A DNA stretch of 64,000 bases. Origin: Escherichia coli (lineage in GTDB: Bacteria > Pseudomonadota > Gammaproteobacteria > Enterobacterales > Enterobacteriaceae). Shown here in pieces: positions 47,895-56,590 of the stretch. The notes beneath the pieces are model-generated. The model made no database searches and was not told the DNA's origin. It saw only the letters and a program-made list of their open reading frames with translations. The translations under genes were made by a program, and so were the position numbers. The stretch is taken from assembly GCF_003334255.1 (NCBI RefSeq), contig NZ_QOWU01000017.1; one strand, given 5' to 3'. How positions within the stretch are numbered: the stretch's first letter is position 1; the number at the start of each line of letters is the position of its first letter.

Positions 47895-53958
<6,064 letters not shown>

Positions 53959-54131
53959 TACTTACCCGCAGAAATCATTCTGCGGGTATTAAGTTGCTTT
54001 CTTATAAATTAATACAGATTAATCCTGGTTATTTGCTTTATTTATCACCAGTCATCCGGTATAGTTCTTCATAATCTCTGCAAAATCATCGTGTTGTAAT
54101 ATTCTCTCATCACTCTCCATCAAATTTTCTT

Positions 54132-54149
54132 TTTTTCTCCATAATTGGC
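54132..54149 (+). promoter_or_regulatory. BaeR box in the spy promoter
   Basis: TTTTTCTCCATAATTGGC, an exact match to the recalled BaeR consensus TTTTTCTCCATDATTGGC. Confidence 0.6.
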
Positions 54150-54287
54150 GCAAAAGTGTTTTTTACACTTTCATTGTTTTACCGTTGCTCTGATTAATTG
54201 ACGCTAAAGTCAGTAAAGTTAATCTCGTCAACACGGCACGCTACTTAAGAAAGCCGTAATAAATAACTGAAAGGAAGGATATAGAAT

Positions 54288-54773
54288 ATGCGTAAATTAA
54301 CTGCACTGTTTGTTGCCTCTACCCTGGCTCTTGGCGCGGCTAACCTGGCCCATGCCGCAGACACCACTACCGCAGCACCGGCTGACGCGAAGCCGATGAT
54401 GCACCACAAAGGCAAGTTCGGTCCGCATCAGGACATGATGTTCAAAGACCTGAACCTGACCGACGCGCAGAAACAGCAGATCCGCGAAATCATGAAAGGC
54501 CAGCGTGACCAGATGAAACGTCCGCCGCTGGAAGAACGCCGCGCAATGCATGACATCATTGCCAGCGATACCTTCGATAAAGTAAAAGCTGAAGCGCAGA
54601 TCGCAAAAATGGAAGAACAGCGCAAAGCTAACATGCTGGCGCACATGGAAACCCAGAACAAAATTTACAACATCCTGACGCCGGAACAGAAAAAGCAATT
54701 TAATGCTAATTTTGAGAAGCGTCTGACAGAACGTCCAGCGGCAAAAGGTAAAATGCCTGCAACTGCTGAATAA
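54288..54773 (+). CDS. spy: periplasmic ATP-independent chaperone Spy (161 aa)
   Basis: ORF track; signal peptide and charged helical repeats. Confidence 0.95.
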   Translation: MRKLTALFVASTLALGAANLAHAADTTTAAPADAKPMMHHKGKFGPHQDMMFKDLNLTDAQKQQIREIMKGQRDQMKRPPLEERRAMHDIIASDTFDKVKAEAQIAKMEEQRKANMLAHMETQNKIYNILTPEQKKQFNANFEKRLTERPAAKGKMPATAE

Positions 54774-56494: not shown

Positions 56495-56590
56495 CTACGC
56501 CTGTCAGGCCTATTCGACTCCTGCAATGTATTGAATTTGCATAGTTTTATAGGTCGAATAAGGCGTTCACGCCGCATCCGGCGTGAACAA
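56495..56590. repeat. REP/BIME element between cho and nadE
   Basis: REP motifs ctgtcaggcctattcgac and ggcgttcacgccgcatccggcgtgaac. Confidence 0.7.

Follow-up and report, generated by a model that had tools for sequence, protein, structure and literature searches.

Placement of BaeR and CpxR sites in the astE-spy intergenic region of Escherichia coli, with a candidate CpxR box upstream of the core promoter

Which sequences ahead of spy serve BaeR, and which serve CpxR, in the envelope-stress control of this periplasmic chaperone gene? In the 64-kb stretch of E. coli DNA analyzed here (the window), the region at issue, 53959-54287, is the 329-bp intergenic spacer that follows the last base of astE (53958) and precedes the spy ATG (54288). 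Its sequence is identical to that of E. coli K-12 MG1655, and it was found in 5425 of the 5426 complete genomes of the species, in line with a preliminary description, made from the letters alone, that had called it the spy control region. The E. coli spy promoter has reportedly been described by Raffa & Raivio in 2002, by Nishino et al. in 2005, and by Yamamoto, Ogasawara & Ishihama in 2008. Locus, sequence, and the two regulators are the same here, and the 18-mer discussed below is the published BaeR motif, so there is no difference in kind; a spy promoter with Bae/Cpx control and this BaeR motif is already known, and the finding is an ordinary one. Relative to the published promoter, a putative CpxR box at 54168-82 and additional BaeR-type half-sites are placed here from conservation.

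The preliminary description had also proposed control of spy by both BaeR and CpxR, and this is supported by three studies that state it (PMC2731931, PMC5355577, and PMC12503329) and by RNA-seq of knockout strains under 5% ethanol (PMC7657598 supplements). In the latter data set, spy was 54-fold lower (-5.76 log2) in the baeR knockout and 8-fold lower (-3.04 log2) in the cpxR knockout under the same stress. Deletion of baeR also led to a loss of the chlorite induction of spy (PMC12503329), and in Salmonella the induction of spy was abolished by knockout of baeR and of cpxR alike (PMC5355577). Overproduction of CpxR raised spy 39-fold, as measured by qRT-PCR, and overproduction of RcsB raised it 3.9-fold (PMC2731931).

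Conservation was counted over 80 orthologous Enterobacteriaceae promoters, ranging from Escherichia to Buttiauxella and Cedecea, and motif retention was counted, alignment-free, in 78 orthologs. Read from 5' to 3', the spacer would comprise the astE terminator, an upstream promoter (P2), arrays of BaeR-type half-sites (TCTNCANAA) that include the box at 54132-54149, a CpxR box, the promoter P1, a hairpin, and the ribosome-binding site of spy (Table 1). We consider it probable that the region is the known spy envelope-stress promoter in this form, with its BaeR array, an inverted CpxR box, and the sigma-70 promoter P1. Indels are nearly absent from box C through the -10 region in all orthologs, suggesting one integrated promoter. 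In MG1655 coordinates, 54066-85 corresponds to 1825828-1825847, 54132-49 to 1825764-1825781, 54168-82 to 1825731-1825745, and 54204-17 to 1825696-1825709.

Table 1. Features of the astE-spy spacer, in window coordinates; fractions are counts among 80 orthologs
Feature	Position	Strand	Remarks
astE (ast operon) terminator hairpin, TACCCGCAGAA/TTCTGCGGGTA, then T-rich stretch	53963-53988	+	11-bp perfect inverted repeat, 4-nt loop
Conserved block TACAGATTAATCCTGG, hypothetically RcsB-box-like	54013-54028		centre ~52 nt upstream of P2 start
Upstream promoter P2: -35-like TTTATT 54037-42, -10 TATAGT 54060-65, start 54073	54037-54073	+	measured transcription start
BaeR-type half-site A1, TCTTCATAA	54066-74	+	exact TCTNCANAA match
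BaeR-type half-site A2, TCTGCAAAA	54077-85	+	exact TCTNCANAA match
BaeR-type half-site B, TCTCCATCA	54114-54122	+	1 mismatch; 22 bp upstream of box C core
BaeR box C, TTTTTCTCCATAATTGGC	54132-54149	+	exact match to 18-mer consensus TTTTTCTCCATDATTGGC
Core of box C, TCTCCATAA	54136-44	+	exact match to 9-mer consensus TCTNCANAA
Possible second half-site of box C, GGCGCAAAA	54147-55	+	
Best CpxR-box candidate, GTAAA-ACAAT-GAAAG (N5)	54168-54182	-	8/10 consensus match; conservation; cpxP likeness
Same CpxR-box candidate, written as GTAAAACAATGAAAG	54168-54182	-	
-35-like TTGACG	54198-54203	+	79-80/80 at every position
CTAAA-GTCA-GTAAA repeat	54204-54217	+	inside core promoter; 9/10 match to GTAAA-N4-GTAAA
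P1 -10 candidate TAAAGT	54214-54219	+	T1, A2, A4, T6 80/80; A3 78/80; position 5 = G or C
P1 -10 candidate TAATCT	54220-54225	+	58-78/80, less conserved than TAAAGT
Invariant CGTCAAC	54226-54232	+	78-80/80; P1 start predicted near 54227 or 54232
5'-UTR hairpin, ACGGC/GCCGT stem, variable loop	54233-54257	+	covariation
Shine-Dalgarno AGGAAGGA 54272-79; spy start codon 54288-90	54272-54290	+	AAGGA conserved in orthologs

P1 would be a sigma-70 core in which the invariant TTGACG is followed by TAAAGT or TAATCT, and these two -10 candidates would place the start near 54227 or 54232. With a simple sigma-70 weight matrix built from textbook frequencies, TTGACG-16-TAATCT was the top match in the spacer (score, 10.5), and CTGATT-18-TAAAGT scored 7.5. 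TTGACG is also one arm of an inverted repeat, TTGACG-N22-CGTCAA. Judged by eye against the consensus sequences, TTGACG-N10-TAAAGT did not fit a sigma-E, sigma-32, sigma-28, or sigma-54 promoter. A built-in promoter scan of the spacer returned none, both P1 candidates and P2 lying below its threshold; the start data of Kim et al. 2012 (PMC3415461 supplement) contain no start near P1, and the text of the Cappable-seq supplement has no entry for the spacer coordinates. Full-text literature searches by the box sequences gave no matches, and those directed at footprints, primer extension, or RACE at spy gave nothing useful. One BaeR ChIP-exo peak (peak_1; PMC7657598 supplements) maps to 54202-54236, over P1. 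Because ChIP-exo peaks at cpxP and mdtA likewise fall on the core promoter rather than on the boxes, they were rejected as a means of placing boxes.

The preliminary description had reported an exact BaeR consensus match at 54132..54149, and the match is there, although it is partly circular as evidence. The 18-mer consensus, TTTTTCTCCATDATTGGC, is said to come from Nishino 2005. When the window was scanned with it, box C was the sole exact match, and two matches with three or fewer mismatches were found against 0.28 expected. The degenerate D of the consensus (G, A, or T) corresponds to the bases at mdtA (T), spy (A), and acrD (G), and among these three only spy has zero mismatches to the 18-mer; the consensus was therefore apparently built from the spy site. 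With spy apparently among the founding promoters of the BaeR consensus, the exact match is not independent evidence. The assignment of box C to BaeR is nevertheless supported at the sequence level by the orthologs, by the mdtA and acrD boxes, and by the match of its core to the 9-mer TCTNCANAA, a consensus credited by PMC3799227 to the spy BaeR/CpxR study of Yamamoto et al. 2008. In the 80 orthologs, TTCTYCAYAATTG within box C is nearly invariant; in the alignment-free count, the motif is kept in 55 of 78 (the exact 9-mer in 48, shifted by 1 nt in 7 more). The BaeR boxes of mdtA and acrD share the spy 18-mer with one mismatch each (TTTTTCTCCCTTATTGGC and TTTTTCTCCACGATTGGC). The geometry differs, however: at mdtA and acrD only 4-14 nt separate the box from -10-like hexamers downstream of it, so that it overlaps the -35 and spacer region, whereas at spy the distance from the box down to P1 is about 80-100 bp and the CpxR box candidate lies in between. 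In the BaeR ChIP-exo data (PMC7657598 supplements), there is no peak on the 18-mer, both peaks in the spacer mapping elsewhere (54070-54090 and 54202-54236), unlike at mdtA, where one peak covers the box.

While its box at 54132-54149 stands, the preliminary description overlooked further BaeR-type half-sites at 54066-54085 (A1 and A2) and 54114-54122 (B). A1 and A2 are phased at 11 bp, and a period of about 11 bp is usual for OmpR-family tandem sites. The tandem arrays of the OmpR/PhoB family, such as pho boxes and OmpR F1-F3, resemble spy in having ~11-bp direct repeats upstream of an activator-dependent sigma-70 promoter. Unlike in those arrays, only some of the units in spy (A1/A2, and B, a weak middle unit, C, and GGCGCAAAA) match well. 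The TCTCC of half-site B is conserved in 58-76 of 80 orthologs per position, and its motif is found with at most one mismatch in 26 of 78.

These additional half-sites raise the question of whether BaeR acts mainly, or also, through A1/A2 rather than through the 18-mer, the footprint-derived TCTNCANAA repeat then being A1/A2. We regard this as a real possibility, although the odds are somewhat against it. A1/A2 offer two exact copies of TCTNCANAA at the usual OmpR-family period, and the published consensus has its N exactly where A1 and A2 differ, whereas the B/C pair would give TCTCCATNA. In addition, BaeR ChIP-exo peak_2 (54070-54090; PMC7657598 supplements) lies over A1/A2, the A1 motif is kept in most orthologs (49 of 78 with at most one mismatch), and a 21-nt repeat links the A1/A2 region to the box at 54135-55. 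However, A1/A2 lie 140-160 bp upstream of P1 and overlap the P2 start at 54073, so that both their conservation and the ChIP-exo signal could reflect P2 and bound RNA polymerase. A2 is weakly conserved (at most one mismatch in 29 of 78 orthologs; exact in 8), and the 21-nt repeat, with an identity of 16/21, is roughly at chance level for 330 AT-rich bases by our own estimate. Box C, on the other hand, is better conserved than A1/A2 and is the element common to mdtA and acrD, which speaks against A1/A2.

For CpxR, the consensus GTAAA-N5-GTAAA is reported to go back to De Wulf 2002. Judged from the sequence, 54168-54182 is the most likely position of the main CpxR site, about 35 bases upstream of the CTAAA-GTCA-GTAAA repeat that the preliminary description had likened to a CpxR site, and on the opposite strand. 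The pentamers of this candidate stand at the canonical N5 spacing, 13 of its 15 positions are invariant in the 80 orthologs, and CTTTCAnTGnTTTAC within it is invariant in 80/80, the G of GTAAA included. The candidate ends 15 nt ahead of TTGACG, with its centre at about -52 or -57 from the predicted P1 start; its location just upstream of the -35 region is an activator position. By consensus score alone, the candidate and the repeat are equal in the N5 register (8/10 each), a level expected by chance.

Comparison with cpxP, a spy paralogue and a classic CpxR target, points to the same site. The cpxP box is inverted too (CTTTAC-GTTGT-TTTAC, against CTTTC-ATTGT-TTTAC in spy), and the spy candidate, read on the minus strand, aligns with the cpxP box GTAAA-ACAAC-GTAAA. 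The distance between the box and a downstream GTAAA(G/C)T (G in spy, C in cpxP) is exactly 30 nt in both promoters, and a TTGnnG hexamer follows 15-16 nt past the box. Unlike in cpxP, the distal pentamer is degenerate in spy (GAAAG), and BaeR boxes lie upstream in spy while cpxP has none. A CpxR ChIP-exo peak was reported at cpxP and none at spy, which is not among the direct targets in that study. From this likeness, GTAAA(G/C)T could be an auxiliary CpxR half-site, instead of or besides a -10 element.

The preliminary description was right that a direct repeat with a spacer one nucleotide short (4 nt, not 5) is present near 54203-54218; it occupies 54204-54217 and is composed of CTAAA (54204-54208), GTCA (54209-54212), and GTAAA (54213-54217). 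Its interpretation as a CpxR site is not supported, on account of the N4 spacing, the poorly conserved first half-site, the core-promoter position, and the -10-like conservation. The separation of the two pentamers departs from 5 nt, which gives a 9-bp period instead of the 10 bp of the consensus. By consensus alone, the repeat lacks significance: in the window, GTAAA-N4-GTAAA at 9/10 or better gave 10 matches against 4.2 expected, and the canonical N5 form at 8/10 or better gave 76 against 58 expected, two of them in the spacer. Only one of the half-sites is conserved across the 80 orthologs. The positions of the first pentamer are kept in 25, 67, 50, 73, and 74 of 80 (C54204 in 25 and A54206 in 50), and the spacer at 54209-12 is variable. 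In the second pentamer, G54213 is kept in 66 of 80 while T54219, two bases past the pentamer, is invariant; a variable G followed by an invariant TAAA-x-T is the pattern that marks a -10 hexamer. Depending on which of the two predicted P1 starts is used, the repeat spans -23..-10 or -28..-15, which puts it downstream of the invariant TTGACG and ahead of the start rather than at an activator position upstream of the -35. Most likely, then, CTAAA-GTCA-GTAAA is core-promoter sequence and not the main CpxR site, its conserved half, TAAAGT, being the -10 element.

It is accordingly unlikely, in our view, that phosphorylated CpxR bound to CTAAA-N4-GTAAA, as a main or an auxiliary site, is the source of the Cpx input. 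Such binding would be consistent with the 9/10 match to the pentamer repeat, with the 8/10 match of the GCTAA-N5-GTAAA reading, equal to that of the upstream candidate, with the high conservation of the GTAAAG half, with the GTAAA(G/C)T of cpxP, a CpxR-dependent promoter in which the main box is equally far from this element, and with the occurrence of ATAAA-N4-GTAAA in most orthologs. Beyond the short period and the variable first half, however, a regulator bound past the -35-like hexamer and ahead of the start should obstruct RNA polymerase, not activate it, and the CpxR ChIP-exo study reports no peak at spy. The box at 54168-54182 remains our candidate for the main CpxR site.

Two separate stress promoters, a BaeR-dependent one (-10 TACACT, 54164-69; start near 54176) and a CpxR-dependent P1, seem improbable to us: a TACACT in spy and a TACAGT in acrD both lie exactly 14 nt after the 18-mer, T64, A65, and T69 are nearly invariant with TATACT in several genera, and the effects of CpxR and BaeR on spy have been called independent (PMC2731931), but the TACACT promoter has a weight-matrix score of just 5.1, BaeR ChIP-exo shows no peak near 54150-54190 and one over P1, the invariance over 54168-54182 exceeds the needs of a -10/+1 region, and the strong loss of spy in both knockouts under the same stress (8-fold and 54-fold), with both regulators needed in Salmonella, argues against independent additive promoters.

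In the single promoter that we prefer, BaeR would sit on the array of half-sites some 80-115 bp ahead of P1, and phosphorylated CpxR would bind GTAAA-N5-GAAAG, centred at about -52 to -57. The two regulators would then jointly recruit RNA polymerase to an otherwise silent promoter. Which protein sits on which box, as well as the P1 start, is predicted here from motif and conservation data.

The upstream part of the spacer contains additional elements. The astE terminator hairpin starts 5 nt past the astE stop and has a predicted fold of -18.6 kcal/mol (z = -7.4). The block at 54013-54028 is a hypothetical RcsB-like element, resembling the RcsB box, TAAGAATATTCCTA; its C15, G17, A18, T23, C24, and T26 are nearly invariant in the 80 orthologs, and many genera read GAATATTCCTGG. 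P2, a conserved weak upstream promoter, was overlooked by the preliminary description. Its start has been measured at 1823864(-) in older MG1655 coordinates, with 152 reads and a 215-nt leader, and is listed together with its flanking sequence (Kim et al. 2012, PMC3415461 supplement). The weight matrix gave P2 a score of 10.2 and a start near 54072, 1 nt from the measured one, and T1, A2, and T6 of its -10 are found in 80/80 orthologs. RNA folding of the P2 leader, 54073-54170, revealed no convincing terminator. Speculatively, these elements may form a second conserved layer of spy control, consisting of P2, the RcsB-like element, and the BaeR-type half-sites across +1 (54066-85). P2 would then provide basal expression as well as a route for Rcs input, and BaeR binding at P2 would shift transcription away from this promoter and its 215-nt leader toward the stress promoter P1. 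The invariant inverted repeat TTGACG-N22-CGTCAA around the P1 -10 would be the site of a factor that keeps P1 tightly off. We think this doubtful; if true, such a layer would be absent from the textbook "BaeR plus CpxR" picture.

Downstream of P1, every one of the 67 distinct UTRs among the orthologs has the 5'-UTR hairpin, whose loop ranges from 3-6 nt up to about 30 nt. Its stem shows compensatory variants (ACGAC/GUCGU in 12 sequences, GCGGC/GCCGC, and GCGAC/GUCGC), and RNAalifold analysis of 24 sequences found double changes in two of three consensus pairs and none broken. An Rfam search of the spacer returned no RNA family.

Collectively, the analysis yields a corrected likely CpxR site, the circularity of the exact BaeR match, and a conservation map of the spacer, in which P2, the RcsB-like block, the 5'-UTR hairpin, and the inverted repeat around the -10 are worth specialist attention. 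The gene spy serves as a standard envelope-stress reporter, and few genes for periplasmic chaperones are induced as strongly. Biosensors also use its promoter, and the placement of its operators therefore matters for reporter design.

The 329-bp spacer at 53959-54287 is bounded upstream by the stop codon of a 322-amino-acid open reading frame (52990-53958) and downstream by the ATG of a 161-amino-acid open reading frame (54288-54773; N terminus MRKLTALFVAS...). Megablast matched 53900-54350 in 5425 of 5426 complete E. coli genomes, with astE and "ATP-independent periplasmic protein-refolding chaperone Spy" annotated beneath the matches. The spacer is the already known promoter of spy. It is identical to MG1655 at every base, and published MG1655 coordinates (x) could therefore be transferred to the window as 54288 + (1825625 - x). 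Annotation and knockout RNA-seq both agree with the preliminary description, which had placed this region under BaeR and CpxR. In ethanol, knockout of baeR lowers spy by 5.76 log2 and that of cpxR by 3.04 log2 (Choudhary et al. 2020, PMC7657598), and in Salmonella each of the two knockouts abolishes spy induction. The strong drop in each knockout and the lost induction in Salmonella are more consistent with BaeR and CpxR acting jointly on a single promoter than with a pair of additive promoters. Part of the knockout effect could come from control of baeR by CpxR.

The exact BaeR box that had been described was found as the 18-mer TTTTTCTCCATAATTGGC, the sole exact match in the window to the consensus TTTTTCTCCATDATTGGC, whose origin is given by three citing papers as Nishino et al. 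2005. The bases permitted at the consensus "D" are those of spy and of the mdtA (TTTTTCTCCCTTATTGGC) and acrD (TTTTTCTCCACGATTGGC) boxes, which are among the closest relatives of the spy control region, and the spy box carries the majority base of this set at all positions. The exact match at spy is therefore without independent evidential weight. Upstream regions of 80 orthologous loci from one Spy-protein scan of species-representative genomes (Escherichia, Citrobacter, Salmonella, Klebsiella, Enterobacter, Kosakonia, through Cedecea and Buttiauxella) were aligned, and base counts were tabulated column by column. Invariance was near total from ~54157 to 54239, and the 5' UTR next to the ATG was well conserved again from ~54260. 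The BaeR-box core TTCTYCAYAATTG (54135-54147) was near-invariant in the same alignment, and in 55 of 78 orthologs an alignment-free scan placed the 9-mer TCTNCANAA (credited in PMC3799227 to Yamamoto et al. 2008) at a constant distance from the core promoter. Conservation thus supports a functional role for the box on grounds separate from the circular consensus.

The published ChIP-exo data (PMC7657598) include two BaeR peaks ahead of spy, 1825677-1825711 and 1825823-1825843, which convert to 54202-54236 and 54070-54090. They coincide with P1, the inferred stress promoter nearest spy, and with the start of the upstream promoter P2; the 18-mer lies under neither, and spy is absent from the CpxR ChIP-exo direct targets of that study. 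In the same data, mdtA has one BaeR peak over its box and another over its core promoter, and the cpxP CpxR peak lies over the -10/start region, off the CpxR box, indicating that these peaks often mark core promoters. The spy peaks show BaeR-associated signal in the spacer without locating the box. The 12-mer TAATCTCTGCAA recurs as TAATCTCGTCAA (54072-54083 and 54220-54231; 10/12 identical), one copy beneath each peak, possibly by chance.

The spacer holds three exact matches to TCTNCANAA, all on the plus strand, against ~0.06 expected. Two form a pair at 54066-85 with 11-bp phasing, and these copies differ exactly at the two positions given as N in the published motif. That motif may itself come from these two copies, in which case the enrichment is circular too; the correspondence further suggests 54066-85 as part of the published footprint. 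That BaeR also binds this pair is a serious, if less favored, rival or complement to the 18-mer: the pair lies under the 54070-54090 peak, but the P2 start falls within it as well. Upstream of mdtA in MG1655 (positions 428-463 of the region designated L083), the half-site-like units TTTCATAA and CTCCATTT precede the 18-mer with 10-11-bp phasing, and with these extra phased units, BaeR sites look like tandem arrays, not a single 18-mer.

The CpxR-like repeat CTAAA-GTCA-GTAAA is present where it had been reported, but its role as a CpxR site was not supported. By consensus alone it is at chance level: the window holds 10 matches to GTAAA-N4-GTAAA at 9/10 positions or better (4.2 expected) and 76 to the canonical N5 pattern at 8/10 or better (58 expected), and no N5 match of at least 9/10 falls within the spacer. 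Among the 80 orthologs its first pentamer is weakly kept (C at 54204 in 25, A at 54206 in 50), its 4-nt spacer is variable, and even in the conserved half G54213 varies (66/80). T54214, A54215, A54217, and, beyond the pentamer, T54219 are each found in 80/80; A54216 is found in 78/80, and 54218 is G or C. This variation is that expected of a sigma-70 -10 hexamer (TAnnnT), unlike that of a GTAAA half-site. Farther upstream, 13 of the 15 positions of CTTTCAnTGnTTTAC are invariant across all 80 sequences, including the counterpart of the G in GTAAA, and its minus strand reads GTAAA-ACAAT-GAAAG, with the canonical 5-nt spacer. Judged by sequence, this element is probably the main CpxR site; the repeat is unlikely to be, though it may play an auxiliary role.

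The promoter of cpxP, a paralogue of spy and a classic CpxR target, was fetched for comparison. Its sense strand reads CTTTAC-GTTGT-TTTAC and the opposite strand GTAAA-ACAAC-GTAAA, which we take to be the CpxR box and which can be aligned with the candidate spy box. In both promoters the box end lies exactly 30 nt from GTAAA(C/G)T, and a TTGnnG hexamer lies 15-16 nt past the box. These shared features suggest one architecture common to the paralogous promoters, in which the CpxR box would be the upstream inverted element and the conserved pentamer of the repeat would be core promoter. By CpxR architecture, cpxP is the closest relative of the spy promoter.

Promoters were scored with a simple weight matrix of textbook sigma-70 frequencies. 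The published P2 start maps to 54073 (152 reads; Kim et al. 2012, PMC3415461), 1 nt from the predicted one, which lends some confidence to the matrix; A54073 is invariant too in the 80 orthologs. For P1, conservation favors TAAAGT whereas the matrix favors TTGACG/TAATCT; we infer a start at 54227 or 54232 and keep both -10 options. A separate BaeR-dependent promoter is improbable: TACACT lies exactly 14 nt past the spy 18-mer, as TACAGT does in acrD, but the matrix score is low, no ChIP-exo signal falls at TACACT, and spy expression is non-additive.

Features of the astE-spy spacer, with positions relative to either candidate P1 start
Feature	Position	Strand	Sequence	Matrix score (predicted start)	From 54227	From 54232	Remark
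astE terminator	53963-88
P2 promoter	54037-54073		TTTATT-17-TATAGT	10.2 (~54072)			Second in matrix; -10 TATAGT at 54060-65, T1, A2, T6 invariant in 80 orthologs
BaeR-type half-site	54066-74	+	TCTTCATAA				Exact TCTNCANAA
BaeR-type half-site	54077-85	+	TCTGCAAAA				Exact TCTNCANAA
BaeR-type half-site	54114-22		TCTCCATCA				One-mismatch copy of TCTNCANAA
BaeR 18-mer	54132-54149		TTTTTCTCCATAATTGGC		-95..-78	-100..-83
18-mer core	54136-44	+	TCTCCATAA				Exact TCTNCANAA
Candidate CpxR box	54168-54182		CTTTCAnTGnTTTAC		-59..-45	-64..-50
CpxR-like repeat	54204-54217		CTAAA-GTCA-GTAAA		-23..-10	-28..-15
P1 option			TTGACG-16-TAATCT	10.5 (~54232)			Top in spacer
P1 option			CTGATT-18-TAAAGT	7.5 (~54226)			Third in matrix

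Several further features were observed. A perfect inverted repeat, TTGACG (54198-203)-N22-CGTCAA (54226-31), flanks the -10/TAAAGT with arms invariant in 80 orthologs; it may simply combine the -35 hexamer with the first transcribed bases, or else serve as the site of some dimeric factor. The 215-nt P2 leader spans the BaeR boxes, the CpxR box, and P1. Solely in this leader could 54168-54181, in the CpxR-box region, pair with 54260-54273 (14 nt, imperfect, 79%), which carries the conserved AATAACTGAAAG directly upstream of the Shine-Dalgarno sequence; the arms are too invariant for covariation. Between ~54239 and 54258 the alignment keeps nothing except the 3' arm of a 5'-UTR hairpin, conserved as base-pairing, not sequence, and shifted in alignment position by variable-loop indels. 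The stem (54233-37/54253-57, ACGGC/GCCGT) begins 1-7 nt past the inferred P1 start and occurs in 67/67 distinct orthologous UTRs, with compensatory double changes (ACGAC/GUCGU, GCGGC/GCCGC, GCGAC/GUCGC) and a very variable loop (3-6 nt up to ~30 nt); it may be an mRNA-stabilizing 5' stem. Upstream of P2, a conserved block, TACAGATTAATCCTGG (54013-28), is centered ~52 nt from the P2 start and reads GAATATTCCTGG in many genera, resembling the RcsB-box core. RcsB overproduction induces spy 3.9-fold (PMC2731931); the similar box of rprA is centered at -42.5, unlike the spy block at about -52, and an RcsB-like box at 54013-28 is proposed purely as a hypothesis. Kim et al. 2012 also place a start (28 reads) inside spy, at 1823341(-) in older MG1655 numbering and ~54596 in the window; they assign it to ves, the gene downstream, with a leader of 380 nt. 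Outside the spacer, Rfam matches to the ES036 (CssrF) sRNA lie on the minus strand at 56506-56548 (42.9 bits) and 63652-63694 (55.5 bits), both exceeding the family gathering score.

Collectively, the earlier interpretation is partly supported: the locus and the regulators were right, the BaeR box is supported, the CpxR site was misplaced, and the inventory of BaeR sites was incomplete. Dual control of spy by BaeR and CpxR is already known. Beyond it, there may, with rather low probability, be a second regulatory layer composed of P2 with the RcsB-like box, the BaeR half-sites across the P2 +1, and the invariant inverted repeat over P1.
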